43,249 bases of DNA from Nemertoderma westbladi (taxonomy: Eukaryota > Animalia > Xenacoelomorpha). Where the stretch lies: contig JAUCBJ010005838.1 in assembly GCA_032718475.1 (NCBI GenBank), positions 1-43,249 on the forward strand, given 5' to 3'. The notes under the pieces were generated by a model, which was not told the DNA's origin, made no database searches, and saw nothing but the letters and a program-made list of their open reading frames with translations. Shown piece after piece: positions 10,815 to 41,166 of the stretch. A program made the translations under genes and the position numbers. The stretch's first letter is position 1, and every line of letters starts with the position of its first letter.

Positions 10815-11081
10815 TGTGAGCGGATTCAATTCCGCCTCACATAACCCCCATAAAGTAGGGAAGTGGCGCCTTTAAGCAATATTGGGGAGTACGAGGTTGA
10901 TTACAATCAACCTCGTATCACCCCCAATAATGCAGACAACACACGGCCCCAAAGAGCCACAGAAAAGAGGTTATAGGTCAAATCTCTTGGGAGAGGGAAA
11001 GTAGCAGCAGCGGGGGGGAAGCACTCCCACAGAGGTGGAGGCGAGAAGTGGGATAACAACCAATGGGAGAGGAGAGCATCC
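10815..11081 (+). repeat. Element B 5' LTR, left part
   Basis: Matches 32312-32578; interrupted at CATCC by element A. Confidence 0.92.
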
Positions 11082-12688
11082 TGTTCGCGGTATTTCAACT
11101 TTCCATAACGCGAGTTGAATATTTTTGTATTTATTTAAAATTGATTATTCCGATATTACTACTGGGTGCGGGACCATGGGTTTTGGGCACATTCAATAAA
11201 CTGGGGGCGATTTATGGGCGAACTTTGGGGCAACTTACAGGGTACGGGAATAATTTCATAGTTATAAGGGCCAGGGGGGATGGAAAATGCAAGCAGTATT
11301 CAGGTTAGCCTGAGTACTATTAGGCCCTGGCCAACTTCCTGCTGCCTGTAGGGGTGGATTTGGTAATGCGCCAGGCCTAAAGGACAAGGACTGCCCTTAG
11401 CGGTCCCTGGCCAACGGCAGCTACTACGAGACTGAAAAGAACTCGGAACGCTGACTGCTTGTGTCAGGGATTTGCGACGGGCACCGACGGCCCCTTAGTA
11501 GCCAAGCCGTTCTGGTTCTCGATGATCGAACCCCGGGGTTCGTGAGGGGTGGAGCGGACACGCGAACAGGTGGCCAACTAACGACTGCCCCCTGACCTAA
11601 GCCGTACTGGTTCTCGATGACCGATCCCTTCGGGGTTCGTGAGGGGTGGGACGGACATGCGAAAGGGCTGGCCACAGGACTGGTTTGACAAGGACTGCCC
11701 TTAGCGGTCTCGGGTCAACGGCAGCTACTACGAGCCTGAAAAGAACTCGGAACGCTGACTGCTTGACTGGGATTTGCGACGGGAACCGACGACAGACCCC
11801 TTAGCCAAGCCGTTCTGGTTCTCGATGATCGTTCCCTTCGGGGTTCGTGAGGGGTGGAGCGGACACGCGACGGGGTCGAAAGACAAAGGACTAGACTCGA
11901 CTAGACTCTACCGGCCTACCGACTGTTCGGAGCAGTTTCTCGGCTGCCGAAGCGACTACGAGCCTGAAACGGACTCGGAAAGCCTAGGTGGTTGGGTTTC
12001 TGTGATGAACTGACGGACCCCTAGCCAAGCCGTTCTGGTTCTCGATGATCGAACCCTTCGGGGTTCGTGAGGGGTGGAACGGACACGCGAACGGGTCCAC
12101 CGACACGACAGACTCCTAGCCAAGCCGTACTGGTTCTCGATGACCGAACCCTTCGGGGTTCGAGAGGGGTGGTACGGATACGCGACAGAGTCTACCGACT
12201 GGACCGACCCTTAGCCAAGCCGTGCTGGTTCTCGATGATCGTTCCCTTCGGGGTTCGTGAGGGGTGGAACGGACACGCGACAGGGTCGACCGACACCGAC
12301 ACTACGGCACTAAGACTGGGACTGAGGGAAAATCTGAGGAACATTAGGTAGGCTAAAATTCTGAGCGAACAGTGGGTTATTAAATAATATACCGTAGGGA
12401 TTTATATTATCGTGTATAATTATTGTGAATATTTGGTGTATATTGATTTGGGGAAGCCCAAAATTATTCTTAATCAGGGTTCAATATTGTTGACAAGGTT
12501 CAACAGAGTTCAGTTACATTAAAGAGTATATCCAACTAATGCAGCTTTTTCTCAACCGCAACCCTGCATCTCAGAAATCATTCCTTCTCCACAATCAATA
12601 TCCGGTGACTGGCCGGGGCTCGGTGGTCTGTTAAGTCACGTCTCCAGCATCGGCGTTTTTCCCCCCTGGTGTAGGAATAACGGCAACA
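11082..12688 (+). repeat. Element A 5' LTR
   Basis: Direct repeat of 23886-25492. Confidence 0.95.
11386..12292 (+). repeat. Array of structured repeats inside the LTR (six ~85-nt K-turn-like modules, three GNRA hairpins, two CTGCC/GGCAG hairpins); duplicated at 24190-25096
   Basis: Core AAGCCGTTCTGGTTCTCGATGATCGAACCCTTCGGGGTTCGTGAGGGGTGGAACGGACACGCGA near 11504, 11599, 11807, 12027, 12122 and 12217. Confidence 0.9.
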
Positions 12689-12690
12689 AA

Positions 12691-12703
12691 ATTAAGAATA
12701 ATT
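12691..12703 (+). promoter_or_regulatory. Non-tRNA primer-binding-site candidate (self-complementary to the LTR)
   Basis: ATTAAGAATAATT, 2 nt after the LTR end, is the exact reverse complement of LTR 12462-12474. No TGG-initiated tRNA PBS at this position. Confidence 0.55.
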
Positions 12704-12942
12704 AATGCGGTTAATTTTGACACGGTGTCAAAATTAAGAATAATTATCGTGGTCAACTTCAACTGGTGGAAGTTGAGAATCCTTCAATACTCTTCAAAAA
12801 CTCTCTACGTGCTTGCCAGCACCCACTACGAGGAAACTCTGGTATTTGAGTTGAGACAAAGTCGTGGTTTAATTAATCAGCAAACTCGATCTAACCAACT
12901 CGTAGTCGGCAGATCACATATTTGGAGAGTTGTTAACAGGGA

Positions 12943-13134
12943 ATGGAAGTATCGATCACACCCATTGATATAATTCAAGTTGAGCCAGGAATCTGGCACG
13001 TCGAAGTTGAGGTACAAGGAACGAACGTCGGACGATTCAGGATTACTGTTCGGGTGGTTCAAGCTGAGTACAATACCTACGAGGAACTGTTTTACGACAT
13101 CGCGTATCTCGCCATCGACGAGGCGTTACAATGA
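12943..13134 (+). CDS. Small acidic 63-aa ORF upstream of gag, stop overlapping the gag start (ATGA)
   Basis: ATG at 12943; TGA at 13132-13134 overlaps the gag ATG at 13131-13133. Confidence 0.4.
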   Translation: MEVSITPIDIIQVEPGIWHVEVEVQGTNVGRFRITVRVVQAEYNTYEELFYDIAYLAIDEALQ

Positions 13135-16100
13135 CAACAAATAACGTATCCGATACCGACGAGATGGATCACCACACAGACTCGGAAGCCGACGAGGTAC
13201 CAAACGTCAAAAACATGACCCGTCGGTTAGGGGCTCTTAAAGGCGGAGTAACCCGAGCGTATCAACGGATGGAGAAACAACTCAAGGGAGTCAAAACCCC
13301 CCTCAATGAGGTACAAACTCAGCTTCAAAGTATCCGAAATATCCTACAGCGGTACGAAAGAATGATACAGGCGTACCAAGAGCTCGTTCCCCCCACCGAT
13401 CTGGAAAACTACCCCAAGCTGGAAGAACACGTTGTACATTAGATGGGTTCCGCAAACAACACCGGAGGACCCTCAGCCTTGTGAGAGGCTATGAGGAACA
13501 GTATTACAAGAGGGCTGAAAGAACAGACGCGGAATCAGTACGATCCTCCAGCATCAGGACAGGAGTACATCGCAAGAGAATGGGGTCCACCAGAAATCAG
13601 CACTCCAGCGCTAGGAGCGAGATATCCGGCTCAGCGTGCAGTTCTCAAGGGGCGCCGCCACTCCGAGACCAACTGCGAGAGCGGAAGGCATTAGCCCTCA
13701 AAGCTCGGATGGAAGATGAGTATATTCAACTGCAAGCCGAGCAAGATGTATTAGCTGCAGAAACCCAAAGGCGAGAGGCCGAACAAGCGGCCGAACGGCA
13801 GGCCGAACAACGTGAACAGGAAGCCGAACAACGCAGGCGAGAGGACGAACAACGCAAACGAGAGGACGAACGACAGGCCGAACAACGCAGGCGAGAAGAC
13901 GAACAACGCAAACACGAGGACGAACGACAGGCCGAACAGCGCAAACACGAGGCCGAACAACGCAAACACGAGGACGAACGACAGGCCGAACAGCGCAAAC
14001 ACGAGGCCGAACAACGCAAACAGGAGGCCGAACAACGCGGACGAGAGGCCGAACGGGAGATCGAACAACGTAAATGGGAAGCAGAAATGCGTAAACAACA
14101 CGCCGAGGCCCAAGCAATTCTCATCCACAAAAAGAACGCGGATATTGCAAAACTCGCGGAATACGAAGCCGCACTTATAGAACGAGATATTCAACTCTAC
14201 GAGGACTGGGAGAGGGATATAGATCAGGAATATGAACCAATCCCGGTACCGGAATTAGAAAAGTCATTTATACCGACAGCGGCGAAACTTCCGAAACCCG
14301 AAATCCCGCCTACCAAACAGTCTACGCTATCGGCACAAGCACCGGTGTTCCATCCACCACCGGCGACGCTAAAGAACGAGGAACCTTATTTCCCATCCAA
14401 CACCACGACAGCGAGTGTACCCAAGTACGAGCCTGAAAAGGACTCGGAACGGGACGCCACTCCCCGATCAAACAACCCATTTACATCAACACCACAAACT
14501 CGTAGCCGCGTCATTATTAAAACTCCGCCTATCATTGATCCATCAAGTATGGGAGTGAGTGCCAATAACTATAACCCTCCGAGTCACTCCAGTTCAGACG
14601 ACGTCAGCATCATCCGGGCGTTGGAGAACCGCCTTGCCATGCCGAAGATGGAGATTCGCACCTTCGAAGGAGATCCCGTCGATTACCTCAGATTCAAGAA
14701 ACGGTTCTTTGCGCAGATTGGATCAACGGACATAGCCGACGCACAGAAATTGGTATATTTATCGCAATACCTGGGTGACAAACCCCGCAGAATTGTTGCA
14801 TGTTTTGAAGGAGGTTCTCATGAGGCATACTATGACGCATGGAAAACTCTAGACAAAAGATACGGAAATACCGGAACTATAATTAATAAAACTCTAGAGA
14901 GACTGATACAGGATGCAGGATCACTAGGGGACCCACAGAACATACAGGAATTCTCCGACTCTATGAAAGATGCCTATTATACTCTGAAGCCCTTAAATAA
15001 GGAGGACCAGGTGAACAACATTCTAAACCTCCGACAGATCGCCCGGAAGTTCCCCGGATGGCTACAAAGTAAGTGGGCTTATAAATGTGTAGATCTCCGG
15101 CGCAGACATCCAGATCGAGATCCTAGCTTCCTTGAAATGTCGGCATTCCTGGACGATATCTCCGAAGCCATGAATGACTCGATGTTTTCAAAACAAAGTC
15201 TCGCAAAGTTGGACGGAATAGAGAGCAACTCTAGGAGTAAGATAACCCCTCCGAAACCAAGATTCCGCCCCCCACCGGTAAGTACGATGGCCATCACCAT
15301 GGCTGAGGATTCCGACGACGAAGACTACGAGGAACCGACATCCGCCAAGGAATGGGCATGTTATCTCGCGAATTGGGCCCCCGAAAGGGAAGGCGTCACA
15401 AATTCCCTACTCTGTCTCTTCTGTGGGGAGAAACATAAAGTGGAATTCTGCAGGAAGTTTCAGTTCGCCGAACTCGTCCCACGTTTCGAGGCGATAATGA
15501 AACACCGAGGATGCTTCCGGTGTCTTGGAACAGGTCACTACGTTCGGGATTGCGACCAAAGGTCGTGCTGTGCTGTCTGTAACGACCAACGCCATCACAC
15601 GCTCCTCCACATCCCCGCGAACTTCGACTTTACTACCCTCCCCTTTCGGATCGAAGCCAGGCGAAGAGGAGAAACAAACCACGTCTTCAAAGGAACCCGG
15701 ACAACCCAACGGAGAGAAACCAACCCGTTTAAAATCTCCACCGCTACACCACAAGTAACAAATATTTCGGCCACGATTAATCTTATAAATCGCCGCTACA
15801 TGGTTTTCGCAAAGGTAATCCCAGTAAGGATCCAAGGAGTCGGCAAATCTTTGACGACACTCGCATTCCTCGATAACGGGTCCGACGGAACCATCATCGA
15901 CCGGGATTTTCTCGAGCAACTCGGCCTAGAATATGAGCCTTGTAAACGGCCCATACAAACCATCACCGATAACAGAGAGGTAGAGTCCGGGGAGGTGCAA
16001 CTCCAGATGGAAGGAGTGATGAAGGGCTACGAAACGGCTAAGTTAACCATAAAGAACGCCTTGGTACACACAGACCTCCGGGTGCGGTTCCGACAATCAG

Positions 16101-19100
16101 CCGAGTACGCCCCCCTCATACAATTGGACCGGGACGATGTAGACCTGAGGTGTCCGCAGTTGGACGTAAACCGTATCACCCTACTGATCGGACTTGATAC
16201 ACCGGAACTACACATCCCCACCGGAGATATCGCCCGATCTATAAACCAGGATGACGGATTTTATGCTGAACGAACAATAATGGGATGGACACTCTGCGGC
16301 ATTAAGGAGGAAACCACGGACACCTATACCTACCTTCCCAAATGTCAGATTAAAGAGAATGTAACCTCCGTGGGTTACTGCTCAGCTTCGGATCTCGACG
16401 AGGATTTGTTTCTGGAAACCGAGAAAACCCAACGAGAGATGACGAAATATTTTAATTTGGAGACCCAGGAGTTCGCGGAAAAGGACGAAAATCCATCCGA
16501 AGAGGACCAATATTGTATGGACGTTCTCGACCAGGCCACGTTTAAAGACGGACACTGGAGTTCACCTATGTTATGGAAGGACCCAAACAAACCAATGGCA
16601 AACAACGCCAGCATGGCACTTAGGCGACTTAAAGGGATTCTACGCCGGTTGAATGACCAACCCGAGATAAAGGAGAAGTATAACACCGTAATCCAAGGAT
16701 ATCTCGATGATGGATTAGCAGAAATGGTACCACGGAACGAACTGCAAGGTGGTAAAAGAACATATTATCTCCCGACCCACTATGTAGTAGAAGCCCGCAA
16801 AGGTGGGAAAATCCGAGTGGTAAATGATGCTGCCGCTATATACCAGGGCGAATCCCTAAACAGTCAACTTTATACGGGACCCAACATATATAGCACACTC
16901 ATCGGCGTATTGATCAGGTTCAGGGAAAACCGGGTAGCATTCACCTGTGACATCAAGGCCATGTTTCATCAAGTTCGTACATTACCAAGAGACTCGGACT
17001 GTCTACGTATCCTATGGACGGATAAAACGCTTACTCAACAGGAGATTAGCCAACTCACGATAAAGGACGTAGACATAATGCGTATGGTCGTCAGGATCTT
17101 CGGCGCTAAGGACTCGCCGGTAGCATGCAGTGACATGCTAAAGAGGACGGCAACCAATTGCGAAAACGAGTTCCCTCCAACCGTCATAGAAACCATTCGA
17201 CGATGCTTCTACGTGGACGACGGATGCGCTGGCGCGGATAATGTAGATGAGGCGTATCAGCTAGCAATGGGGATGGTAGAATGTCTAAAGAAAGGAGGGT
17301 TCCCACTCGTGAAGTTCAGATCCCACGACAAAACACTTATGGAAAAGTTTCCGGAGGATATCCGGCTGGAAAATAACAAGATGTATTCGGAGGATGTGGA
17401 ACATCGTGTACTCGGGATTGAATGGGACATAGAATCAGATGAATTCATCTTCAAATATAAACCCCTACCCAAGCCTATGACAAAAAGGGGATGTTTGTCG
17501 ATAAAAAGTGCAATCTTCGACCCACTAAATTTCATATCTCCAGTAACCTTGGCCGGAATGAACCTGATTAAGGAAATGTGGATAGAAGGACTGGGATGGG
17601 ACGAAGAGCTTCCCCCATACCTTAGCGTCAAATGGAGAAAATGGACGGAGCAACTCGAACACCTACATCTTATGCGGATACCTAGACCGTTCTTCCTCGA
17701 TAAACTGCCCACCGATATCTTCCAGCTCCACACCTTTTCGGATGCTTCAAATACCGGAATCGGCGTAGTAACCTTCTTACGGAGACTAAGTAGCGATGGA
17801 AACGGCGATACAAGCTTCTTATTCTCCAAAGCAAAGACGGTATCCGGGGAATTCGTAGCAACGATTCCGAGACTCGAGCTACAAGCTGCAGTTTGGGCAG
17901 TAAGACAGAATCGCATGGCCATGCGGAACCTACGGATCCCCATAGAATCTCAACACTTCTGGGTAGATTCGAGTATAGTTCTCTATTATCTCCACTCTCC
18001 ATCACGGCGTCACACCACGTTTGTTGCAAACCGAGCCACAGAGATTAAACAGTGTACCGGCCGAGAACAGTGGCATCACGTAAACGGGAAGGAAAACCCA
18101 GCGGACTAATCAAGCCGAGGCGCCACCCCAAAACAACTCGGTAAAAGTAAACTCTGGCTTACAGGCCCGGAATTCCTACGGCAGCCACAGTTAACATGGA
18201 GTACCCGATTCGACCCCGAACTCGATAGCGGAAAATACTCCGAGGACGATAAAGAGATTCGTAAAATCCATCGAAGCAACGCGGTGGAAATTTATAGTTG
18301 CCTGACTGAGCCTGCAAAGGACTCGGGCAGGCACTATAACGTCGCGACGATCACTCAACTAGCGACGTCTTTACATCGGTTGATCGAGCGAACTTCATCC
18401 ATGAGACGGCTCGTCCACCATGTTATAACCCTTCGCAACTTCCTACGGTGGAAAAACAACAAACCGATAGTTCAACGGAATATACAAGAACTCATTATCG
18501 CGGAGAAGTGTATTGTTAGATATGTCCAGAAAGAAAGTTTCCCCGATGAATGGGAACAACTTAGTGCGGGCAAAACGTTGAAACCGGACAGCCCAGTCTA
18601 CCAACTAAGACCAATGATGGGAGAGGACGGACTGATCCGACTGAATACCCGGATGGCAAACGCCCCGGTCGAATATGAGGTTAAATACCCGGCGCTCTGC
18701 CCGGAACGTCGACACTAGCTAAGCTATTAATTCTACAATGTCACGAGGACAACCACCACGCAGGACAGAATTGGATTATAGCTAATATAAGACAAAGATA
18801 TTGGATCACCCATATCCAGCCACTGATCCGGAAAGTGTTGAAACGTTGCTTCACCTGCAGACGTTACCTAGCGCCACCAATCACTCAAAAGATGGCCGAC
18901 TTACCAGCCACCCATCTACAAGCGGATTCCCAGCCATTCTACGTCACCGGGGTGGACTGTTTCGGACCGTTCACGGTTATTGAACGACGATCCAACATCA
19001 AATGCTGGGGAGCCATCTTCACCTGCCTGAGGTCTAGGGCAATTTACCTAGATATCGTGGTAAATCTGACACAACACGCATTCATCAACGCTCTGCGTCG

Positions 19101-19916
19101 GTTCGTGGCGAACAACGGGACATGCCACCACATGTATTCCGATAATGGTACAAACTTTGTGGGAGGAGAAAGGGAACTCAGAGAGGCGATCGAGGGATGG
19201 TTTACCGATAACACACCGCATCCCAAGTCTGGAAGGAACACCAGATACAGTGGCACTTCCAGACCCCCTTAGCCCCCCATACGAGCGGGGTATGGGAGAA
19301 ACTGATCGACCTCGTGAAACGATCCATGCGCGTCGCTCTAGGCGATACCCGGGTAACCCATGATACCCTCCGCACAACATTCTGCGAGATCACGGCTACC
19401 CTGAACAACCGACCTATTGTCCCTATCCGCGACGACCCCACAGACCTGGAGCCCCTCACTCCTAACCACCTACTGGGGAGACCCAAAACCCACGTTCTCC
19501 CGGAAACCATGTTCCCGGATCCCAACGAGATCGCGAAGCATACAAACTGGAAAAAGGCCCAAGCGTTGGCAGCGCATTGGTGGAGAATTTGGGCCCAGGA
19601 ATATCTCATAACCCTCCGGACCAGGAGAAAATGGAACAACACCTACCGGAACGTCGCAGTTGGCGACATGGTACTAGTTAAAGAAGATCTCAAAGACCGC
19701 GTTCACTGGCCTGTGGCGCGGGTCGTGACCATACACCCAAGTAAAGACGGACTTGCGAGGACTGTGACGATACGAACGGCAAAGGGCCACTACCAACGCC
19801 CTATCCAGAAGCTGTGCCTTCTTGAAGGCAATGACAGTGGTGATTCTACGAGAGGTGATAAGATCCCTACTCAAGATCCTGCTGTGGACATTGGTGACAA
19901 TTACAAATCTGTGTAA
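13131..19916 (+). pseudogene. BEL/Pao gag-pol polyprotein, disrupted by frameshifts (~13439, ~18715, ~19230) and a stop (18107-18109)
   Basis: DUF1759-like PKMEIRTFEGDPVDYLRF. Zn knuckles CLFCGEKH, CFRCLGTGHYVRDC, CAVCNDQRHHTLLH. Protease FLDNGSDGT. RT RVVNDAAA, DIKAMFHQV, FYVDD. RNase H LHTFSDAS, TIPRLELQAA, NPAD. Integrase HEDNHH...CFTC, VDCFGP, SDNGTNFVG, APHTSGVWEKL. C-terminal WAQEYLITL. Confidence 0.95.
13770..14100 (+). repeat. Coding tandem repeats (EQRK/EDERQA coiled coil) in gag
   Basis: Repeated GAGGCCGAACAACGCAAAC-type units. Confidence 0.85.
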
Positions 19917-20191
19917 CCCTTCTCATCATGTTGACAAACTCTTATAAACTGTGATTTATCGACAACGAATTATGGACCCCCTTTAAACAACTGTAACCAC
20001 GCAATGGTATTTGTGTTTCCTCGTGTGTTATGTGGAGTCCAGCATCACCCTGCAGATGTTTCGACTGACGCAGGGTCGTTTATGTATTGTTTACCCTGAT
20101 TTTGGTCATCAGGACCTACGATATTGGATTATTGGAAATGGAAAAGATTTGAAGTGGAATTCATTGTATTCATTGCAGTATGTTATGTTGT

Positions 20192-20610
20192 CCGTTGCGT
20201 GCGCAGTTTGGGGCGTAGGCGGTGTAACGAGTCCAGCTGTAGATCCTGGATTGCCGCGCAACACCCCCTCTATCCCGTTATTCTGGTGGGTCCATGGTGC
20301 ATCCACATGACTTCGACGATAGAGGGTTTTATGTTTCTCAGTCGCGTTATTCTGGTGGGACCGTTACGTGGATTTTGGGGCGTAGGCGGTGTAACGAGTC
20401 CAGCTGTAGATCCCAGAATGTTGCGTAACCCCATCCCACATGACTTCGTCGACTGAGCTTTATGTTGTTGGGAGTGTTATTCTGGTGGGTCCCTGGTGCA
20501 TCCACGTGACTTCACTCCTAGCGTCTTCATTGTCCGTTACGTGCGCAGTTTGGGGCGTAGGCGGTGTAACGAGTCCAGCTGTAGATCCCAGATTGCCGCG
20601 TAACACCCCT
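20192..20610 (+). repeat. Interleaved structured repeats between pol and the accessory ORF
   Basis: Motif X TTTGGGGCGTAGGCGGTGTAACGAGTCCAGCTGTAGATCC x3 (20207, 20375, 20549). Motif Y GTTATTCTGGTGGG...CCAC[A/G]TGACTTC x3 (20277, 20346, 20476). Confidence 0.9.
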
Positions 20611-21163
20611 TCCACGACAAAGATTAACCAAAGAAAATGATTGAATATAGTTGGAAATGATGAAAAGGATCAGACAACTCTACTATAAACCTGAATGATG
20701 ACGCGTATGCTGATGAAAATGTGATGATGCGCACCCTGGTGCTGCGCTTATAACAAATGATGATAGCCGGGGGGCTATAAACCCAATGATGATGTGGAAA
20801 TAAATAAATGTGAAATAAATGGTGGAACTAAATGTTGAAATATATGTGGAAATAAATGAAATGAAATGAAATAATAATGAAAGGAAAAAAGACAAAAAAA
20901 AGGTATAAAAGAGGTCAAAGAATATAATTGGAAAAAAAAAAAGGACAAAAAAGTCATAAAAAACTGGTTGGATATTATGTATAGCTATAGTAACTGTAAA
21001 TGCTGAATGTATTAGCAATAAGATGATAGATGCCTATATAGCAATGTTATTTAATAAACTGAATTAAATAAAAAAAAACTGAATTATTCTGCTATCGCTA
21101 TAGTTTCAGACTTTCTGGACTTATAATTAACTGAACTAATTTGTAACGGATATAATCGTAAAT

Positions 21164-23719
21164 ATGGACCCAAATCGCCAAATTATCGGCGAATTACGTA
21201 ACACGATAGATCTACTGGAATATTCGCAACCCGGATCCCCTGACTTTGATACAAATTGGAGCATTCTGCTAAATGAGAACGTATGAGAAGTTAAATTCAC
21301 CGGGCGAGAGGGACCGGATTCTAAGAATCTACGAGCCCTCCGGTTAGCCGATGCTAGTACGAGACTGAAAAGAACTCGGAACGCAAAGGCAACCGGAGGG
21401 GACGATTCGTCGTTTTGGGAAACGTTCCGGCAGAACGTCTACAGATCCCGATGTTTGATCTACGACAACGAGGGAAACGCGACGCCCACCTCGAAAGCGA
21501 TTACGTTGGCGAGATGTCAAAGTTTCGTCGACGACAAGAGTACGTACCTAGCCCACTGGGGAAACCTGTCGGAGTGTACGGCGAAGCTTCGAGAGGAACG
21601 CGTATCGATTATCCAAAACCGCGACGACTACCAGGAAAAGTACGGGGCGAAAGAATACGGTCGATCCTTAGTCGTCGTCCTCGGAACCCTGGACGGTTTG
21701 GTACTGGTGTGCCGAATATTCCCGACACCCAGACAGGAAGTGCAGGCAGCCGGAGCGATCTGGTTGCTGCCTCCGGAAATCCAAAAGATCCTCTTCGACT
21801 TCGACGTCATTAAAATCGGGTCGGATATCAAGGCGGACGTCCGGAACGACTACGCGAACGCTCCCGCAGGAAGAAACCGACGAAACGACCTCAACGCACT
21901 TAGCCATTGCATCGACACTCAAACGCTGCTAGCCTGGTTACGATTCGCCGAGTTCATGCGAGGATTCCAAGAAGTGAGACCGACGAAATCCGGGATCGGC
22001 TACCTCGCTGTGCTCAACGGCGGTATCGACTTCAAACCCCAGAAATTCCGGGACTATAATAAAATATACGGCGGATACCCGGGATTAGAGATAAAGAGCG
22101 AGCGAGAGGGTCGATGGAAGGACGTCGATCGGAAGTGGACGATACACCAAAGGTGGGAGAATCCCGATCGACGGAGCTATATCTACGTCGTTATGGAATG
22201 CTACACCGTCGCTAAGTTTATCTGTAAAACTCTCGATAACCTTATTACGGCGGTCCCCCTTTCCTTCGTCGACTACGACTGGAACGAGGTTATAAACCAC
22301 GCGTTTAAAGCGGTCGAGAACATTACACCGGGAGAATCAAAAACGCCCGCCGTTATTGATTCCTGGGACGAGAGCGGACCTTACGACATCCCTACGATTA
22401 CCGAACTTCTCGGTGCGGAGGAGCCTCTGATCTCCTCGGAAGGGGAAGAGATATGGCTAAACGAGGGTGTTCTACTCTCCACCCCGAAGCGACAACTCGA
22501 GCCGGAGGCCGCGTACGGACCGGCCGCCAAACGGGTCGCCTCGGCCGAACCGATGAAGAGAGCAGGCGTCTACACCCCACGCGGCTCCGGTAGCCCCGCG
22601 AGAGAGGTAGCCACTACGGCTGCATTGAGCGACTTCGGCGACATATGCCAACGGTTATCCCCGTATCCTTTCCCGGGCGGCGAAGATTGGTTGTCGGAGA
22701 TTCCGAGTACCAGCCACCAACGGACCCGCTCAGCGATACTGGTCGAGGAAGGCCCCAGCGATGCGCCGACACCCGACGATCTCCTCGGTATCCCTCCGTC
22801 GAAAACCCCGGCACCTCTTCGCCGACCAGCGGTGGCTACTACACCCGCCGTTCCTCAGGACCCTATGCGACTAACCCGTTGGTACGCCGAGCAAACTGAA
22901 TGGATCCACCGCCAGAAACGGTCATCCGAGTTGAGACCAGCGGGACACAAAGAGGGTTATCGGAGCGAGAACATACTACGCAAAAGCCTAGCATTCCGCG
23001 GGCTACCGACCACCGAGAATATTCCGAAGAGCGACCGACGACTCGAATACTACGTCGGCGTCCCGATTCCGATATTCCCCGGTCGAGAAACGCAGTTGGA
23101 GGTATGCGGCGACTGCGGCTCGGAGCAGTGCCCACGCGGCAGAAGGAATCGGGTTACCGATTCTTGCCTCCAGCTCCTCGGGATACTCTATTGCCCATAC
23201 TGCGCGATATCGGGCCACGACGTTTCGGTCTGTCCGATCCTTTATAACCTCTGCACCACGTGCGGTTTCCGTGGACATTCCGCTATGGGCAATATGGTCA
23301 CGTTTGAGACATACGCAAACAGCCACTTAAAGACCAAGTTTCGGAGAAACACTCGGAATATCGCGCAGGAGATGGCGTGCGGATATTTCTCCTTCCCGGA
23401 ACGCCTCCACACGTCGGCCTCGCTACCCTTCCATTACGTGGATCTGCTACTGAGCGCCGGATTATTCGGTCCATTCGAAGTTATTAGACGATTATACTCG
23501 TATAAAGAGGAGTTCGGTGACGGAGAATGGTTCCTAGAGGCACGCAACTCCGAGTTGGAAAGACGAACCGACATGATCCCGATGCCTTCGAAAGGAAGAG
23601 CCGCCAGGAGATAAGCCGAAGCGTTACTCACAATGGATGTTGACGCTCCTCTACCAGCCATAGCGATCGATGAGAGTCGACGGGCGAAGAGACGAAAGGC
23701 GTACCAGAAAAAGAAATAA
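21164..23719 (+). CDS. Accessory ORF of element A: DEDDy-type 3'-5' exonuclease, disordered linker, CCHC zinc knuckles and basic tail; in-frame stops at 21284 and 23612
   Basis: ATG 21164 is in frame with the 719-aa ORF. ExoI-like IYDNEG. WRN/EXD-like LLPPEIQKILFDFDVIKIGSDIKADV (ExoII), CIDTQ, KSGIGYLA and WENPDRRSYIYVVMECY (ExoIII-like). CPYCAISGHDVSVC and CTTCGFRGH. Reading through 23612 adds ...RRAKRRKAYQKKK. Confidence 0.75.
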
Positions 23720-23885
23720 TGGATTGGGATATTCCAGGAACATTTATCGAACATTTATTTTTATACAAACTCTAGGCCAAATTAATTAAAAACTATGCAA
23801 TATTAAATTTGTGATTTTTTATATTGGGAATGACCTACGCAAACTCAATCGACCGACAGACTTCACGAAGGTCATTGGGGGGGAC

Positions 23886-25492
23886 TGTTCGCGGTATTTC
23901 AACTTTCCATAACGCGAGTTGAATATTTTTGTATTTATTTAAAATTGATTATTCCGATATTACTACTGGGTGCGGGACCATGGGTTTTGGGCACATTCAA
24001 TAAACTGGGGGCGATTTATGGGCGAACTTTGGGGCAACTTACAGGGTACGGGAATAATTTCATAGTTATAAGGGCCAGGGGGGATGGAAAATGCAAGCAG
24101 TATTCAGGTTAGCCTGAGTACTATTAGGCCCTGGCCAACTTCCTGCTGCCTGTAGGGGTGGATTTGGTAATGCGCCAGGCCTAAAGGACAAGGACTGCCC
24201 TTAGCGGTCCCTGGCCAACGGCAGCTACTACGAGACTGAAAAGAACTCGGAACGCTGACTGCTTGTGTCAGGGATTTGCGACGGGCACCGACGGCCCCTT
24301 AGTAGCCAAGCCGTTCTGGTTCTCGATGATCGAACCCCGGGGTTCGTGAGGGGTGGAGCGGACACGCGAACAGGTGGCCAACTAACGACTGCCCCCTGAC
24401 CTAAGCCGTACTGGTTCTCGATGACCGATCCCTTCGGGGTTCGTGAGGGGTGGGACGGACATGCGAAAGGGCTGGCCACAGGACTGGTTTGACAAGGACT
24501 GCCCTTAGCGGTCTCGGGTCAACGGCAGCTACTACGAGCCTGAAAAGAACTCGGAACGCTGACTGCTTGACTGGGATTTGCGACGGGAACCGACGACAGA
24601 CCCCTTAGCCAAGCCATTCTGGTTCTCGATGATCGTTCCCTTCGGGGTTCGTGAGGGGTGGAGCGGACACGCGACGGGGTCGAAAGACAAAGGACTAGAC
24701 TCGACTAGACTCTACCGGCCTACCGACTGTTCGGAGCAGTTTCTCGGCTGCCGAAGCGACTACGAGCCTGAAACGGACTCGGAAAGCCTAGGTGGTTGGG
24801 TTTCTGTGATGAACTGACGGACCCCTAGCCAAGCCGTTCTGGTTCTCGATGATCGAACCCTTCGGGGTTCGTGAGGGGTGGAACGGACACGCGAACGGGT
24901 CCACCGACACGACAGACTCCTAGCCAAGCCATACTGGTTCTCGATGACCGAACCCTTCGGGGTTCGAGAGGGGTGGTACGGATACGCGACAGAGTCTACC
25001 GACTGGACCGACCCTTAGCCAAGCCGTGCTGGTTCTCGATGATCGTTCCCTTCGGGGTTCGTGAGGGGTGGAACGGACACGCGACAGGGTCGACCGACAC
25101 CGACACTACGGCACTAAGACTGGGACTGAGGGAAAATCTGAGGAACATTAGGTAGGCTAAAATTCTGAGCGAACAGTGGGTTATTAAATAATATACCGTA
25201 GGGATTTATATTATCGTGTATAATTATTGTGAATATGTGGTGTATATTGATTTGGGGAAGCCCAAAATTATTCTTAATCAGGGTTCAATATTGTTGACAA
25301 GGTTCAACAGAGTTCAGTTACATTAAAGAGTATATCCAACTAATGCAGCTTTTTCTCAACCGCAACCCTGCATCTCAGAAATCATTCCTTCTCCACAATC
25401 AATATCCGGTGACTGGCCGGGGCTCGGTGGTCTGTTAAGTCACGTCTCCAGCATCGGCGTTTTTCCCCCCTGGTGTAGGAATAATGGCAACA
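23886..25492 (+). repeat. Element A 3' LTR
   Basis: Direct repeat of 11082-12688, preceded by a G-run PPT. Confidence 0.95.
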
Positions 25493-25497
25493 CATCC

Positions 25498-25822
25498 ACT
25501 AGGTACAGAGGCCAAGATACTGTAAGATTAGCCAATGTATATATTATATTGCATGCAGTGAAGTTATTCAGTTATTCCATTCATTAGTGCAGTTAGGTGA
25601 CATTTTCGTACCGTCACCATCATTACCGGTCAGTAGCATCTATATTACTTAACTTATCTTATTACCGTCACCCAGTCAACTGTGCTATTATATCTCATTG
25701 CCGTATATCAATCAACCTGTAACAGCATATCAATATCAGAACAACAAACTATTATCTTCTTTCACAACGAGCGGCGACGCGTAACGAAAACAAACCAGTC
25801 GGGATCCCCTGATCCCATCACA
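25498..25822 (+). repeat. Element B 5' LTR, right part (TATA-like ~25538, Inr-like TCAGTT 25568)
   Basis: Matches 32579-32903; 267+325 = 592 bp reconstitutes the LTR. Confidence 0.92.
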
Positions 25823-25887
25823 GTACGAAAATCTAGACAACTGCTAAAGCTGTGACTGCCAGCCACCAACAAAGAAAGCGTTAAAGG

Positions 25888-28800
25888 ATGAGCGAAGCCC
25901 AAAACCTAGAGGGAGAGACGACACCGTCGCTGACCCCGGACGATACCAACGAAACGATCCATGAGGCCACGACGCGACGGTATTGACCCGCAATGCCGGA
26001 CTCGCCGGAACGGGACGATCCGGTAGCCCAAGCGGGGGGCGGCCGTCTACCAGGATGAGGGAATGAGTCGACGCACAATGGTGATCGACGTACCGATGTC
26101 GCCGGCCAGCCACAGGCCGAGGGCGACGGACGGCCCACCAGAACGGCGACGGTGGGGCCGCCGGTACGACGCCAAACCAGGAGGGGAGGAGGAGAGGTCA
26201 GCGACGAGGATGTCGGAACCAGTGACCGGCTCTGATGAGCCTACAACGCAACAAAGAAACAACTCAAGGAGGCTAGAGAAGGAGTAAAGATAGATCAAGG
26301 GAAGTTGAGCCGGCGACTAGGTGAGTCGAATAAACACTTCAACTAACTAGTTCGCTTCGGGCAGGGAGAACTAGCCAGTTAGAGAGCGAGGGGGGTCGCC
26401 ACCGAACTATTTGAACTGTGGCGATCTGGGATAATGGAGCCACAGATAGTGTACATAGGGCTGTATTTAGTGGATGCTAGGGGAATTAAGTTAGTGGGTT
26501 GGGCAGACCCGCACGAGGGCGAATCCGAGATTAACCCCGAGGATTCGGTCTCGTCGGCTAGCGAGAACCCCAGAAAGCGGGGGAAAGTTAGTAGGACAGA
26601 GAGGCGACGGGAGTCCATCGCAACCGACAAGTCCGCTACATCCTCCGCAAAAGCAAGAAGGGTGTTAGAAATAGATCCGGCGTGTCAGTTGGATATGGTG
26701 GTGCTAGACCAGAAAGAGTTAGAGAGGCAGTTGGAAGAGGGAACTGCGTTGTTGGAAAGAGAGAGAGAACTGGCGAGAGAGAATAAAGAGAGGGCTGAGA
26801 GGGTCGCGAGAAACTTTAGAGAGTGTGAGGAGATATAAATAAGGGAAGGAAAGGAGCGAGAAGAGCGAGAGGCGAAAGAGGCGAGCGAACGTAAGGAGCG
26901 AGAGGCGAAAGAGGCGAGCGAAAGTAAGGAGCGAGAGGCGGAAGAGGCGAGCGAACGTAAAGAGCGAGGGGCGAGAGAGGAGAGTGAACGTAAAGAGCGA
27001 GAGGTGAGAGAGGAGAATGAACGCAAAGAGCGAGGGGCGAGAGAGGAGAATGAGCGTAAAGAGCGTGAGGCGAGAGGGGCAAGCGAGTGAAAAGAGCGTG
27101 AGGCGAGACGGCTTGAGAGGATTGCGAGAGAGGCGGAATTGGCCGAGCAGAGTTTGCGAGAGGATAGGGAGAGAGAGAGAACGGGAAAGCGTGTGCGGGA
27201 TGATATGCACGCCCGGTTGAGGGGGCTTATGCAATATCAGGCCAAACAGAAGCGCAGTTGGGGCTGTCAGAGAGTGAGGCTGGCTCGGGTAGTGTTTACG
27301 AGGAGCCAGAAGTTATGGAAACGTTTGTTATTACCCCACTTACAGGGACCGGACGACATACCCAAGACTGGTGTAACCGTACGGGCGGGGAGGGGGGGGG
27401 GGTAATAATAATACGTTAGAAAACGTTAATATTAATAGTACCGTAGTGGATAACCCTAATCAAACTTTCATTGCAGCAAATAACATTTTGCCCGGTAATA
27501 GTAATTTAAATCCGAATGATCCTAATTTAAATGTAGAAAATGATTCAAATAATCTAGATTCGAATATACAAAATAATTAAATTAATTTAAATTTAAATAC
27601 GCAAATAATCTAAATAATAATCTTACTTCAAACGAACAAAATAACCCCAATTCTAACCAAAATATACGAAATAATTTAAATAATAATCCGAATTCAGAGA
27701 ATAATTCTAATAATTTCAATAATTTCAATAATAATATTGATAACGGGGCTATTAATAATAACATGGAAGACACAGGTGGGCCGGCCAACCGAAGCCTGCA
27801 AGGCAACGTAGTTAGTACGCAGGGAGTAGCGGGGGTGAGTGACCCCGACGGGAGCCTGCAAGGCCACGTAGTTAGGCAGGGAGTAGCGGGGGTAAGTCAA
27901 CCCGACGGAAGCCTGACAGGCTACGCAGTTGCACAGGGAGAGGTGGGGGTGAGTAGAACCAGCCGCAGTAGAGACAGTGCGTCGACTAGAGAGGGGTGTA
28001 GAAGCGAAGTAGGAGGTAGTGAAGTTAGAAGTGGCGAGTGGGGGGGGGGGGGGGCTACGGGCGCCCCACCACGGAAGATTAGTGGCGAGAGAGGGGGAGC
28101 AGAGAATGGAGCAGAGTCAGTGGGGTCGAACTCCGGGAGATTGCCGTCGCCCTGGAGAGACACACCGCACGCCGAGAGAGGGGTACAGAATGTACCGATA
28201 CGAAGACGAGAACAGGAGAGGGGATCGAAGAGAAACTTCCCGATGGGATATAGCTGCCGATCGAGAGTACGGTAGTCGCAGGGAGATTCGAGATTCGAGA
28301 AGATTAAACTTCGGTTCGGGAAGGGCACATGCAGACTGCAGGACATGCTGTAGGACTTACTGCACATACTATTATAGGCCATGCTGGGAGAGATAGTGTG
28401 GCGATAGGGTAGCGCGAACGACGGGATTAGATCCGGGAGTCGCGGAGTACATGCCAGTAGGTAGGCAAGAAGTGGATAGGCTTATATCGGTACCAGCACA
28501 GCAGCATGACTATAATATGCAGGGACATAACATATATCCAGGGGAGGGGAGAGTTATTGCAGATAGATGTATGGGCCCCAATATATTAACATCAACCCCA
28601 GTACCAAACATACCGATGGGGGGGGGGGGGGGGGGACAGGGTGACATTCCCCCATTACATTATCAACAATACACTCAAACAGGAATAAGAACATCGAATC
28701 CCCTGGATGAGGACAGGTCGTGCGACACGGAAATATGGAGGGGGCCGCTACCCCCAATGATATATCCGAGACAGAGAGAGTCAACAGGCCCGATGGGCGG

Positions 28801-31146
28801 ACCGCACCCAACAGGAGAATCTGTACAGCATCCCTCGAACCCATTGGAAGCACAGGCAATGGGAATGGCGGCACTAATTGATGCACTAAAGACCAGGATC
28901 GAGTTACCACCAGTCGAGCCATTTAAATTCGACGGAAGTAGGCCGGAAGAATACCTGCAATTTCGGCGCATGTACAGCAATGAAATATTGACAAAGAACC
29001 TGACGCAGGCGGAGTGCCTAAAATATTTAAAGGTATATACAGGAGGCCAAGCAAGCGTACGACATCGTGAGGCAGTATCAGGGCATCGAGGGCGGCTTCA
29101 CGACTGCATGTAGGGCCCTAGACAGGGAATACGGACACCCAGCCAAGATCATCCGGCAAACCCTGAGGGGTATAACATCGGGTGGCCTACAGGATAACCT
29201 TGTCAGCATAAAGACGTTTGTGAACAAAGTCGAGAAGGCGTTAATCATGCTGAAGACGCTAGACGCGCCATACGAACTCAACGCATCTAATAACATCACC
29301 ACGATAGCGCAGGCACTGCCGATCTGGCTGCAGAGCAAGTGGAGGAAGATCGCCTTCTCCACACGGGAGAAGAAAGGTGCGGAGCCAGGGCTAGAGGAAA
29401 TGTCAAACTTCCTCAACTACGAAGCAGAGTTGATCACAGACCCAGTCTAGTGAGGATAGTTTGGGGAAGGCGCCAAAGACCGAATACAACAGGCCTAAAC
29501 CCGAACATAATCCTGCAGATCCATTCCCGAGAGTAAGACAGTTGCTACCACACGCGGCCACACAGGGGGCTACAAGCCCACAGTTAGCTGGGAGTAGGGC
29601 CACACCGTGGCAGGGACAGAAAGAAAATAACAACACAAATAAGCATAATCCCAACATACCCAGTAGGCCGAGTCCAGATAACCAAAACACTAAATCGGTA
29701 GATATAAACCTACGCGCGATACGTGAGGGACTATACAGGGAACGCTATAATCCAGGATTCGAATGTCAATTACATCAGGACGGAACCCATAAGACCATGA
29801 GTTGTAAGCACTGGCAAGCGTTGCCCAAACAAGATCATATAGCCTACACAGACGCAAACGGACTATGTCATCATTGTGTGGTAGAAGGACACAGATCCGG
29901 AGAGTGTAGAGAAACAGCAATCGGAGACGATGAGACTGGAGGCCAAACAATGGCTACAAGCACCACAGGAGTAAGGAAAAAGAGGAAAGTACTACTCGGG
30001 GTAGTACCAGTGAAGATATCAGGAAAGGGCGGTCGATCAGTAACGACATTAATGCTGGTCGACAGCGGAGCAGCCTTCACGCTGGTGGAGAATTGGGTGG
30101 CCGAAGAGATAGGGCTAAAGACGAGGCCGAATAGGATGGCGGTAACTACCGTCTCAAGTAAGGATGAGGTCCTGGAGATGAGGACGGGGCGGTGCAAGAT
30201 AGCAGCGATAGCACCGGGATGCGATTATGGGGCGACGATCGACCCCATCCACGTGATAGAATCGATAAATATCAACGCCAGGCGACCAACCAACATTGAA
30301 GTCGAACAATATAGATTCCTGGACAGTATCGATTTCTCAATACCAGAGGTGGACGTTAGGAAGGTATCCATTATAGTAGGAATGGACTGCCCGACGGCCC
30401 ACGAGAGAATGCAGACGGTCTTCGGCGAAGACAGACAGCGGGATCCGACGGCGATCCTCACGCCGTTCGGATGGACGCTTAGCGGCCCAGTTAAAACCAA
30501 GATTCCATCCAGGGTGACAGAGACATCAGGGTGCATGTTACCAGGCACCGTAGACGCAGAGGACGAAGAGAAGAAACCGGAGATGGTAGATGAGCCAGAC
30601 GGGGAAGTAACAGTAGGAGAGTGGGCGGAGGAGAATGGATTTGACGTGGAAGACTTAGAGGCAATGAGATGGAACAAGGGTCCCAGCAAGTATTGGTATG
30701 GGGATGGAGAGGAGCAGACGGCTAGATGTCCGGAGGACAACCCGGAGGAGCGGACGGCGAGATGTCCGGAGGACAACAGTCTGGGGGAGTGTCCGGAGGA
30801 GTGTTCGGAGGAGTGTCCGGAGGAGTGTCCAGAGGAGTGTCCGGAAGAGACGCCGGTCCGGTTGAAAGGCATACCGACAAGGGGGAGGTCGAGTAAGAAG
30901 ACAGGATGGAAAGGGATAGGATTACTATTGTCCGTTCTGTTTTATCTATTCTTCCGATTTCTTTTCATTCTACCGCCAGGAGACGATCAGATGAAGGGTG
31001 GCATTTTACTGCCAGGAAATGAGGAAATTAAGAAGGCGGCTGAGAGACCCGACTTTAGGGTGGCAGAAGAGGGAGAAGCAATTCCTAGAGGATTGGAATT
31101 GGCGAAGAGAGGGTGGCGAAGAATAAGAGGACGTATAGGGGGGTAG
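25888..31146 (+). pseudogene. Element B gag-protease remnant, multiple frameshifts and stops, no RT/RH/IN
   Basis: INPEDSVSS, ERE-rich coil, DUF1759-like IELPPVEPFKFDGSRPEEYLQF, WLQSKW, knuckle CHHCVVEGHRSGEC, protease MLVDSGAAFT, PTAILTPFGWTLSGP. Confidence 0.85.
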
Positions 31147-31249
31147 TGGGAGAGTGCCTACTGGAAGAAGGGGCACCTTAGAGTTTAGTCGTCCAATATT
31201 TTGGACTGAGGGGGGTGGGAATGAGGGCGAGACGCCCTTCCCATGCACA

Positions 31250-32060
31250 AAATAATTATTTAAATAAAATAATAAAAATAATTAAATAATTAAATAAGAA
31301 GAAAGTTAGGAAGTAATAGTTAGTAGAAGATAGTAAGTAGAAAGTTAGAAGTATGAAAGTTAGTAGAAGATAGTAAGAAGTTAGTAGTCAGATAGTTAGT
31401 AGTTAGAAGATAGTAAGTAGTAGTCAGAAAATTAGTTAGAAAGTTAGTATGAAGATAGAAGTCGGCGGGTATAGGGAGTGTGGTATATAGACATACCACG
31501 GGAGTAGAGGGGTACGTGGTACAGTTAGAAGTCGGCGGGTAAGGGAGTGCGGTATATTAACATGCCACGAGTAGTAGTAGAGGGGTTGTGGGCACCGTAA
31601 GCGGCACGTAGAAAGTAGTAGTAGAGTGGTTGTGGGCACCGAAAGCACCACGTAGATGGAGGTAGTAACAGAGTGGTTGTGGGCACCAAAAGCGCCACGT
31701 AGTTAGAAGTGTTGGTAGAGTTAGAGAGTTCTAGTTAGGAGTTAGAGAGTTAACAGAGTTAGGAGTTAGTTAGAGTTAGTAGAGTTAAGAGTTAGTTAAA
31801 GTTAGTAGAGTTAGAGAGCTAGTTAGAGTTAGTAGTAAGTAGTAAGTAAGTAAGTAGTAAGAGAGTTAGATAGTGAAGAAGTAAGTAAGTAGATAGAATG
31901 ATAGCACAGGGGTAACATAAGAGATTTAGCACCTTTGAATGCGAGAGAGAGTGCAGACGAGTGCGATCAAGGTGTGGGGAGAGAGCAGACTGGAGTTAGA
32001 GTGGAGCAGAGAGAGATTAAGATAGAGTTAGAGTGAGAAGTTAGAGTTTGAGTGAGAGAG
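31250..32060 (+). repeat. Strand-biased low-complexity (AGTT/AGTA/AG) tract with embedded short repeats in the 3' region of element B
   Basis: Long C-poor runs; GGTTGTGGGCACC...CACGTAG x3; GAAGTCGGCGGGTA...GGTATA x2. Confidence 0.85.
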
Positions 32061-32311
32061 CTTTTAAAAATTGTGTGAGAGAAATCCACAATTGTCTCAA
32101 ACCGAGACGCCAGATGTCTTGGTGCAACATAGGTTGCTTTTGCACCAAGAAGGGGTAGTAACATCATACCCAGAGGGAGCGGCCTGGAAAGCCGACTCCA
32201 AGTAAGAAAACTCCACCCCACACCCGATAGTAGATCGGGTTCCAGCAGAATTGAAGCGCACTCATAGAGGTTGATGCTATCTTCTCACCGGGAAGATAGC
32301 ATGGAGGGGAG

Positions 32312-32903
32312 TGTGAGCGGATTCAATTCCGCCTCACATAACCCCCATAAAGTTGGGAAGTGGCGCCTTTAAGCAATATTGGGGAGTACGAGGTTGATTA
32401 CAGACAACCTCGTATCACCCCCAATAACGGGGACAACACACAGCCCCAAAGAGCCACACAAAAGAGGTTATAGGTCAAACCTCTTGGGAGAGGGAAAGTA
32501 ACAGCAGCGGGGGGGAAGCACTCCCACAGAGGTGGAGGCGAGAAGTGGGATAACAACCAATGGGAGAGGAGAGCATCCACTAGGTACAGAGGCCAAGATA
32601 CTGTAAGATTAGCCAATGTATATATTATATTGCATGCAGTGAAGTTATTCAGTTATTCCATTCATTAGTGCAGTTAGGTGACATTTTCGTTCCGTCACCG
32701 TCATTACCGGTCAGTAGCATCTATATTACTTAACTTATCTTATTACCGTCACCCAGTCAACTGTGCTATTATATCTCATTGCCGTATATCAATCAACCTG
32801 TAACAGCATATCAATATCAGAACAACAAACTATTATCTTCTTTCACAACGAGCGGCGACGCGTAACGAAAACAAACCGGTCGGGATCCCCTGATCCCGTC
32901 ACA
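32312..32903 (+). repeat. Element B 3' LTR
   Basis: TGTGAG...GTCACA, preceded by the PPT at 32303-32311. Confidence 0.93.
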
Positions 32904-40093: not shown

Positions 40094-40258
40094 TATACAT
40101 TATACAAATATATCATCTTATATGTAATTTATATTTTCTGGAATGCCCTTCCCTTATATTGTTATATATATTTTATTATTTATTATAGATAATCTATAAT
40201 TATAGTTTCGTTGAATTACACCTACTGTATTATACAAGACAATTTTATATTACAGTAG

Positions 40259-41108
40259 CATTAGGGCGACGATTTTGAACATTACTTCGGCGAAGACGGC
40301 GAAATTTTGCAAACGTCGCGATTTTTTCTAAGATTGTCCACCTACAGTATAGTATTCGTAAACACAAAATTTCGCGAAGATCTCGACGTTTGCGAAGTTA
40401 AATTTTGTGTTTACCAACATTGTGGAGCTTCGCAAACGTCGCGATCTTCGCGAATGTTCTAGAAGATTTTTAAAAAGTAAGAAAATCTATAATTAAAAAT
40501 ATATTTTTAAAATTTTTCTATAACAAAATATATTTTAGTTCTAGATAAAAAATATTTTTAAATAACATAGCTAACATGTTCTATAGTATATATTAGTATG
40601 ACATTAGTATGACAGATTAGTATTGTTCACAGAATGTTATGGTACCGGTATATTTATTATACATGTTATACAGATGGTCTAAAAAAATATTCTAGAAGTC
40701 CATGAATGAATTCGTTAGGTTTGGGTTTAAGTTTGGTTAGGGTTTTGTGGGTTTATATTTATATGGGTTTATGGTTAGGGTTAGTGTTAGGGATAAGGAT
40801 AGAGTTCGGGTTAGGGTTGGGTTTGAAAATATTCTAGAACATATTAGCGATTTATTTAAAAATACGTTTTTCCCTAGACCTAATATATTTTGTTCCAGAA
40901 CAGTTATAAAAAATGTTTGTTAGTTATCGATTTTCTTACTTTTATAAAATATTCTAGAACATTCGCAAAGATCGCGACGTTTGCGAAGCTCCACCTATAG
41001 TATTGGTAAACACAAAAGATCAGTTGATCAGATCAAAAAAAAAAATCGCGACGTTTGCTAAATTTCGCGATCTTCGCCGAAGAAATGTTCAAAATCGTTG
41101 CCTTACTC
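40259..41108. mobile_element. hAT-like MITE with long TIRs and a degenerate (TTAGGG)n core
   Basis: 8-bp TSD TACAGTAG (40251-40258 / 41109-41116). TIR TAGGGCGACGATTTTGAACATTACTTCGGCGAAGA versus TCTTCGCCGAAGAAATGTTCAAAATCGTTGCCTTA. GGTTAGGGTT-like tract at 40715-40825. Confidence 0.8.
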
Positions 41109-41166
41109 TACAGTAGTCCATTCGACATTAATTTAGATGCATTTGGCAATGAATCCTTGGAGCCAT

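Follow-up and report, generated by a model that had tools for sequence, protein, structure and literature searches.

The DNA analyzed here (the window) is a stretch of 43,249 nt on the forward strand of contig JAUCBJ010005838.1 of the Nemertoderma westbladi assembly GCA_032718475.1. It contains a BEL/Pao-type long terminal repeat (LTR) retrotransposon in which a third open reading frame, ORF3, follows gag-pol. The results showed that ORF3 is an integral, selected third gene of this BEL/Pao family, and the N-terminal domain of its product very probably has the DEDD fold of 3′–5′ exonucleases. The features of the element are as follows.

11077–11081 (left) and 25493–25497 (right), plus strand: 5-bp target-site duplication CATCC.
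11082–12688, plus strand: 5′ LTR, 1607 bp, TG...CA, with six kink-turn-like/UUCG hairpins and three GAAA-loop hairpin motifs.
12462–12474 (3′ LTR copy at 25266–25278), plus strand: exact 13-nt LTR complement of the primer site, a candidate self-primer.
12691–12703, plus strand: primer-binding-site position, 2 nt past the 5′ LTR, with no TGG start; repeated at 12733.
13310–19916, plus strand: gag-pol of BEL/Pao type, with DUF1759, zinc knuckle, protease, reverse transcriptase (RT) YVDD, Peptidase_A17/RNase H, integrase H2C2 and DUF5641.
20188–20612, plus strand: non-coding spacer between pol and ORF3, with three 83-nt repeats.
21164–23719, plus strand: ORF3, with exonuclease-like domain, low-complexity linker, zinc module and basic tail.
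21358–21384, plus strand: copy of the LTR GAAA-loop hairpin motif, exact over 27 nt, inside ORF3.
21410–22333 (codons about 83–390), plus strand: DEDD-type 3′–5′ exonuclease-like domain, unbroken; candidate residues D101/E103 (ExoI), D225 (ExoII) and Y341...E345 (ExoIII).
23105–23443 (codons about 648–760), plus strand: Cys/His zinc-knuckle module and conserved C-terminal extension.
23868–23885, plus strand: polypurine tract region, with seven G (23877–23883) followed by 2 nt and the 3′ LTR.
23886–25492, plus strand: 3′ LTR, 1607 bp, with four mismatches to the 5′ LTR.

A first-pass annotation, made from the letters of the window, had described a BEL/Pao element with a nuclease gene in the env position, and both the class and the position were borne out. 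Pfam matched Peptidase_A17 (E = 2e-37), DUF1759 (E = 2e-14) and DUF5641 (E = 2e-30) as well as aspartic protease and integrase H2C2 domains; the order in pol is protease–RT–RNase H–integrase. The YVDD motif of RT and the RNase H motifs were legible in pol by eye, and the LTRs, which begin with TG and end with CA, are bounded by a short target-site duplication, as in other BEL/Pao elements. ORF3 lies inside the LTRs, between the integrase/DUF5641 ORF (ending at 19916) and the G-rich tract at 23877–23883. It is not env, as the annotation had held: no env family appeared in the Pfam scan, and the sole hydrophobic window maps to a hairpin of the exonuclease domain. The claim that a transmembrane segment is missing needs qualification, as a hydrophobic 19-mer is present (residues 168–186, Kyte-Doolittle mean 2.08); it was not taken as membrane-spanning because it aligns with the exonuclease β-hairpin of the homologues.

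The window copy of the element is damaged. The frame of about 850 codons reported earlier is not open; its 852 codons are interrupted at codon 41 (21284–21286) and in the region of codon 817 (23612–23614), leaving an open stretch of 775 codons. gag-pol is also broken, with a stop at 18107–18109 and frame changes near 13439, 18695 and 19211. For the comparison with sister copies, contigs from four of nine listed sequencing runs were aligned to the window. At both ORF3 stop sites, all sister-contig depth differed from the stop in every run covering them, and contigs of all four runs contained about 30 nt more at 23285, inside the third zinc knuckle. Since the sister contigs are free of these lesions, the two stops and the 30-nt gap appear to be private to the window copy. 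The distinct contigs on ORF3 numbered 1431 and 2829 in two DNA runs, at 80–100% identity and distributed across bands from below 90% to above 99%, and summed contig depth was not taken as copy number. The contigs running into unlike sequence amounted to at most 1% in two deep runs and 7% in the shallow run X4. The contigs are short; none covers pol, ORF3 and LTR together, and one covers the spacer and ORF3 (20759–21864). The empty insertion site (joint 11076–25493) was found in two of the four runs compared, suggesting that the insertion is recent; the family is young, many-copy and recently active.

To assess synonymy, the 40 best-supported of 307 sister differences in ORF3 were used; six were dropped, namely two that lie beyond the frame, two within or next to the first stop, and those at the second stop and the final stop, and the remaining 34 were classed. 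The expected synonymous share was obtained from the ORF3 codons and the observed transition share, and the comparison was binomial. Synonymous differences made up 22 of the 34, as against 31% expected (binomial P about 7e-5), in a biased subset in which each site was classed alone and which gives no dN/dS estimate. This excess suggests that the family keeps ORF3 under selection. A sister of about 83% identity had a cluster of indels in ORF3 with a net gain of 3 nt, in frame, and the hairpin-motif copy reported within ORF3 was recovered, exact over 27 nt. The synonymous excess, the in-frame indels and the embedded LTR motif bear out the view that ORF3 is integrated and not freshly captured. The same observations, together with the fact that no 8–20-nt direct repeat brackets ORF3, make it very unlikely that ORF3 is a captured passenger of no benefit, carried by recent amplification, even if the broken state of both ORF3 and pol in the window copy would fit such a passenger and other ORF3 types, those of rotifers, vary near-neutrally within genomes (PMC5408684; this and the papers cited below are represented by their accessible text). 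A secondary insertion of ORF3 into the element was considered and rejected, as no such repeat brackets it and its clean removal was seen in none of the 15 joints listed out of 41.

When the ORF3 protein was compared by phmmer with 1.84 billion representatives, seven proteins were found at E ≤ 0.001 (best P0001, E = 9e-16), none of them with an informative name. Five of the seven combine an N-terminal exonuclease-like region with a C-terminal Cys/His module; P0007 has the exonuclease-like region alone and P0002 the Cys/His module alone. Word-index searches gave no further relatives for the ORF3 protein or alignment A1 and returned only P0001 itself for P0001. Scans of metagenome contigs for P0006 and P0008, and of viral contigs and phages for the ORF3 protein, gave no matches. 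ORF3 and its homologues define an unnamed protein family.

Because Pfam matched no family to the ORF3 protein, the nuclease assignment rests on remote homology, which we approached along four lines that share the same few homologues. P0001 scored 11.9 bits on DNA_pol_A_exo1 (PF01612), under the gathering cut-off of 23.6, and the ORF3 protein itself had no PF01612 match. The three Atlas clusters nearest to P0001 were all DNA_pol_A_exo1 (0.86, 0.77 and 0.77, graded by the tool as leads); one of the clusters (0.86) has CCHC knuckles and one (0.77) is EXD1-like. The family profiles matched Egalitarian (E = 9e-4), EXD2 (E = 0.23 and 0.011) and trypanosome RNase D. Finally, a wide fold search with a predicted model gave 50 rows, of which 16 had more than 110 aligned residues and were all nucleases or polymerases; 14 of these 16 are, by their titles, what we take to be members of the DEDD/DnaQ family. 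Two Nibbler EXO domains led the search (Z 3.9 and 3.8, rmsd 4.8 and 5.8), and the other 34 rows were short matches of 36–62 residues.

Several results weigh against this assignment: Pfam gave 0 families at E ≤ 0.1 for the ORF3 protein, the homologue-only profile A4 matched nothing in PDB but knuckle regions, the predicted models had low pLDDT values (31 from the single sequence and 36, the best, from eight sequences), Foldseek with the pLDDT-36 model gave no match at E ≤ 0.001, and the top Z of the fold search was only 3.9. Single-sequence phmmer against PDB returned only DJ-1-like noise (E ≥ 0.15). Each of the four lines is weak, but all of them lead to a DEDD exonuclease of the Egalitarian/EXD2/Nibbler/RNase D group, and the fold is well supported from strand 2 to the ExoIII helix. 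EXD2, Pol III epsilon, TREX1 and polymerase exonuclease domains were among the structural neighbours, as might be expected of a nuclease that proofreads or trims cDNA for RT. That earlier suggestion found no support, since the gene is unfused to RT and the leading matches (Egalitarian, Nibbler and RNase D) act on the RNA side; the sister copies are also highly diverse, and we regard a proofreading role as highly improbable.

The motifs named in the annotation are present as text: YDNEG at 21461, SDIKAD at 21821, YVVME at 22184, the LPPEIQKILFD segment and a basic tail. D225 of ExoII falls on an Asp in three homologues (P0001, P0004 and P0007) and on the ExoII helix of EXD2 and Egalitarian. ExoIII retains its Tyr in Y341-x3-E345, with Glu where DEDDy enzymes have Asp; the last residue is also Glu in P0001 and P0004 and is Asp in P0007. 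Thus, of the proposed DEDDy exonuclease/zinc-knuckle gene, the DEDD-type domain and the zinc module are supported, and the Y-x3-D pattern of DEDDy enzymes is not found.

The placement of ExoI is less straightforward. In the homologues, the ExoI Asp lies 16–25 residues before the strand-2 anchor (48 in P0005), and the YDNE of ORF3 lies 73 residues before it, so that YDNE as ExoI requires a 55-residue insertion. The YDNE segment scored highest of all positions for the homologues' helix-plus-strand ExoI block under two scoring schemes, with the F-x3-V-x-R spacing kept. The homologues' edge strand scored best on RVSIIQN; since this falls after YDNE, a permuted strand order would follow.

There are several points against YDNE. 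hhalign placed ExoI colinearly on RVSIIQN, without the acidic pair, and an hmmsearch with the short ExoI block found no domain in the ORF3 protein. The ExoI strand was unplaced in the predicted model, and the four acidic residues are kept in only three of the six exonuclease-bearing homologues. The significance of the YDNE score is modest (p 0.009–0.19): shuffles reached it in 17/2000 cases with five homologues, 189/2000 with four, and 373/2000 or 101/2000 with HMM emissions. The RVSIIQN register scored 15 bits below the YDNE register. Hence the annotated ExoI stands as text and as the top-ranked position, whereas hhalign prefers a register without the acidic pair; judged from the sequence comparison, YDNE is somewhat more likely than not to be the true ExoI. 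A complete D-E-D-E site would then be present, and we consider this somewhat better than an even bet.

The same evidence bears on the possibility that the nuclease fold of ORF3 has lost all or nearly all of its activity and serves as an RNA adaptor, as in EXD1 and Egalitarian. It would protect, localise or package the element RNA, or act as a decoy, by binding host factors or the hairpin arrays of the element itself. Egalitarian, a dead nuclease-fold adaptor, is the best profile match, and the colinear alignment gives ORF3 a dead ExoI. The acidic set is missing in three of the six exonuclease-bearing homologues, and the P0002/P0008 cluster consists of the zinc module alone. The element also carries hairpin arrays, with a motif copied into gag and ORF3 whose outer stems are different but still pair. 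EXD1 and Maelstrom are examples of inactive DEDD derivatives (PMC5408684). However, the ExoII Asp, the ExoIII Tyr/Glu and the YDNE block are kept in ORF3, as are the four acidic residues in three homologues, and we consider an adaptor without nuclease activity doubtful.

Conservation within the protein is highest in the zinc module, where most of the invariant columns of alignment A2 (23 in all) lie. Only one of the CCHC knuckles annotated earlier is canonical (CX2CX4HX4C, C677–C690); the first has an atypical pattern, and the gap interrupts the third. The module weakly matches the knuckles of Lin28 and nucleocapsid, and it has no Pfam family at the cut-off. As it occurs alone in P0002/P0008 and twice in P0003, it is a mobile unit in its own right.

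We tentatively favour a reading in which the ORF3 product, as an active exoribonuclease, trims host small RNAs or their precursors and thereby blunts silencing of the element. ORF3 would be expressed from a separate subgenomic RNA, its zinc knuckles would bind RNA, the DEDD domain would trim a presumed RNA substrate in the 3′–5′ direction, and the trimming of host small RNAs or precursors would weaken silencing. Action on host small RNAs is favoured because the closest folds belong to factors of small-RNA and transposon control and exonuclease cargo recurs across retroelement classes. LTR and Penelope-like elements prime differently; since DEDD cargo recurs in elements of both kinds, a job common to all retroelements is favoured over one in priming. 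Nibbler trims miRNA ends and alters piRNA length (PMC4406673), and MUT-7 takes part in making germline small RNAs (PMC11347159). A separate subgenomic message is typical of ORF3s (PMC5408684); no strict polypyrimidine splice-acceptor pattern was found upstream of ORF3. As a point against the small-RNA role, Rodriguez et al. report, in the accessible text, no clear link between DEDDy ORF3s and copy number (PMC5408684). Counter-defence of transposons against piRNA silencing is a frequent proposal that has seldom been demonstrated. Here a selected Nibbler/EXD-like nuclease, kept by a family that is young and successful, offers a soluble domain open to direct assay.

A different use of the nuclease is suggested by the primer site. 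Primer sites used by a tRNA usually begin with TGG, and the flank of the 5′ LTR has no such start; no tRNA gene was found within the window. Instead, the 13 nt at 12691–12703 are perfectly complementary to 12462–12474 in the LTR, 227 nt from the LTR end, and the polarity of the pairing suits minus-strand priming. A self-complement of 13 nt was reached in 2 of 5000 block shuffles, and among 100 downstream control windows it was reached solely by the window holding the motif duplicate. The 2-nt spacer after the 5′ LTR has a counterpart at the other end of the element, where 2 nt separate the G tract from the 3′ LTR. In the leader (12689–12750), the primer-site motif is repeated around a palindrome, and some sister contigs skip about 51 nt there, keeping the first motif copy alone.

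The ORF3-bearing element was inserted within the 5′ LTR of a second ("host") LTR element, which ends at 32903. This element has a pairing of 8 nt (25825–25832 with 32683–32690), again with an offset of 2 nt, and here the distance to the LTR end is 221 nt. This pairing was reached in 252/5000 shuffles, and 0/100 control windows reached 8 nt. Because the test was designed after the first match had been seen, the host element is the real check, borderline on its own. The two LTR elements without TGG suggest, from sequence complementarity, possible self-priming in BEL/Pao-like elements.

ORF3 could then make the RT primer: an LTR-derived RNA would anneal to the primer site and its unpaired 3′ tail would be trimmed to the edge of the duplex, replacing the tRNA. 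The perfect 13-nt complement 2 nt past the LTR, the missing TGG and the 8-nt pairing at the same offset in the host element, with the polarity right for minus-strand priming, agree with this. On the other hand, Tf1 self-primes by RNase H alone (PMC7175516), no ORF3-like gene was detected in the host element despite its similar geometry, the candidate transcription-start signals conflict, the sequence around the site is rich in AT and the match was known before the test was designed; primer trimming by ORF3 is in our view unlikely. The broader scheme, a BEL/Pao lineage without tRNA priming whose LTR-RNA primer is trimmed by a permuted-strand exonuclease and whose kink-turn arrays recruit host RNA-binding proteins, is quite unlikely; if true, it would give animal LTR elements a new way of replicating. 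The adaptor and primer-trimming readings are nonetheless serious rivals of the tentatively favoured role in trimming host small RNAs.

The LTRs also contain arrays of hairpins. At 11503–12277 and 24307–25081, each LTR has six kink-turn-like hairpins, five of them with a cUUCGg loop; the core consists of C, a 3-nt GAU bulge, tandem GA/GA, U.U or a variant, and two Watson-Crick pairs. The label follows the kink-turn consensus; the Rfam search gave one chance match only (E = 0.86). One unit folds at z −3.4 and pairing is kept in 94% of cells; covariation among the six hairpins was non-significant (1 two-sided change; 242/500 shuffles). As judged from their form, such hairpins could bind L7Ae-family proteins.

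The GAAA-loop hairpin motif occurs at 11425, 11729 and 11957 in the LTR, at 14426 in gag (3 mismatches) and at 21358 in ORF3. When four copies were folded, they had a common inner stem, a GAAA loop in three, and outer stems that differ yet pair. Two of the four folded better than shuffles (z −3.1 and −2.8), and the ORF3 copy did not (z −1.3). The recurrent motif is a candidate packaging or dimerisation signal.

The host LTR element (10815–11081 and 25498–32903) has 592-bp LTRs and gag-like and protease ORFs, and its flanks differ by one base (TTCGC/CTCGC). Pfam detected no RT among the four ORFs scanned, and the element is probably non-autonomous. Elsewhere in the window there are two broken non-LTR retrotransposon remnants with RT matches (7348–9929 and 38621–40099, both on the minus strand), one with an endonuclease match; nested inverted repeats with an internal 46-nt tandem array, possibly foldback or MITE-like (40102–41558); and a host-like 2OG-Fe(II) oxygenase ORF (2634–3578, plus strand).

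As to self-priming, the cases compared belong to other groups. Tf1 primes from the first 11 nt of its own RNA, released by RNase H (PMC7175516), and certain plant lineages are likewise predicted to prime themselves (PMC6317226). Like the element described here, the Tf1/sushi self-primers have no tRNA-type primer site and have a primer site complementary to their own LTR; unlike it, they are Ty3/gypsy chromoviruses or belong to some copia lineages. Self-priming of BEL/Pao elements was not found in our literature search, with subscription journals outside its scope, and, if confirmed, would be the first BEL/Pao case as far as that search reaches.

Among cellular proteins, the best matches are Egalitarian/EXD1, EXD2 and Nibbler/MUT-7 (PDB 9uju, 6k17, 7jw2 and 7jw6), from strand 2 to the ExoIII helix. 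The similarity is remote (E 9e-4 to 0.2; Z 3.9), and ORF3 differs from Egalitarian, EXD2 and Nibbler in having no other domain by Pfam, in needing a long insertion after ExoI, and in an edge strand that apparently follows ExoI. Trypanosoma brucei RNase D (PDB 7c42 and 7c45) resembles ORF3 in having a DEDD domain followed by CCHC knuckles, and both the profiles and the fold search matched it; the profile score is due mainly to the knuckles, and RNase D, which is a host enzyme, lacks the long linker and the conserved post-knuckle extension.

In the literature searched, with Repbase, Dfam, GyDB and subscription journals outside its scope, we found no exonuclease ORF in a BEL/Pao element. The words "exonuclease" and "primer" are absent from the main text of a BEL/Pao survey, the supplements of which may hold such elements (PMC3118150); "exonuclease" does not occur in PMC13524379; and BEL/Pao LTRs are not modelled in the accessible text of PMC3601003.

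The closest parallel is found in bdelloid rotifers. The LTR clades of Juno and Vesta are of the Ty3/gypsy type. DEDDy ORF3s with a DEED tetrad, whose activity was not assayed, have been described in the Juno, Vesta and Athena elements (PMC5408684), as repeated in reviews (PMC6431247, PMC6338049 and PMC5718144). The possible novelty raised in the annotation is therefore reduced: rotifer LTR and Athena elements provide published examples of such ORF3s, and a BEL/Pao carrier was not found in the literature searched. As in Juno/Vesta and Athena/Terminon, ORF3 stands apart from pol, as a third ORF that follows it in the env position, and its likely product is a DEDDy-type 3′–5′ exonuclease whose tetrad is altered; the roles proposed for the rotifer ORF3s are likewise RNA 3′-end processing and silencing. 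By the published description, the rotifer tetrad is DEED and that considered here D-E-D-E, and, unlike the rotifer ORF3s, the present one has about 850 aa and a multi-knuckle module. The rotifer carriers are other LTR clades and Penelope-like elements; our findings extend exonuclease cargo from these to BEL/Pao, suggesting that such cargo has been captured repeatedly and independently.

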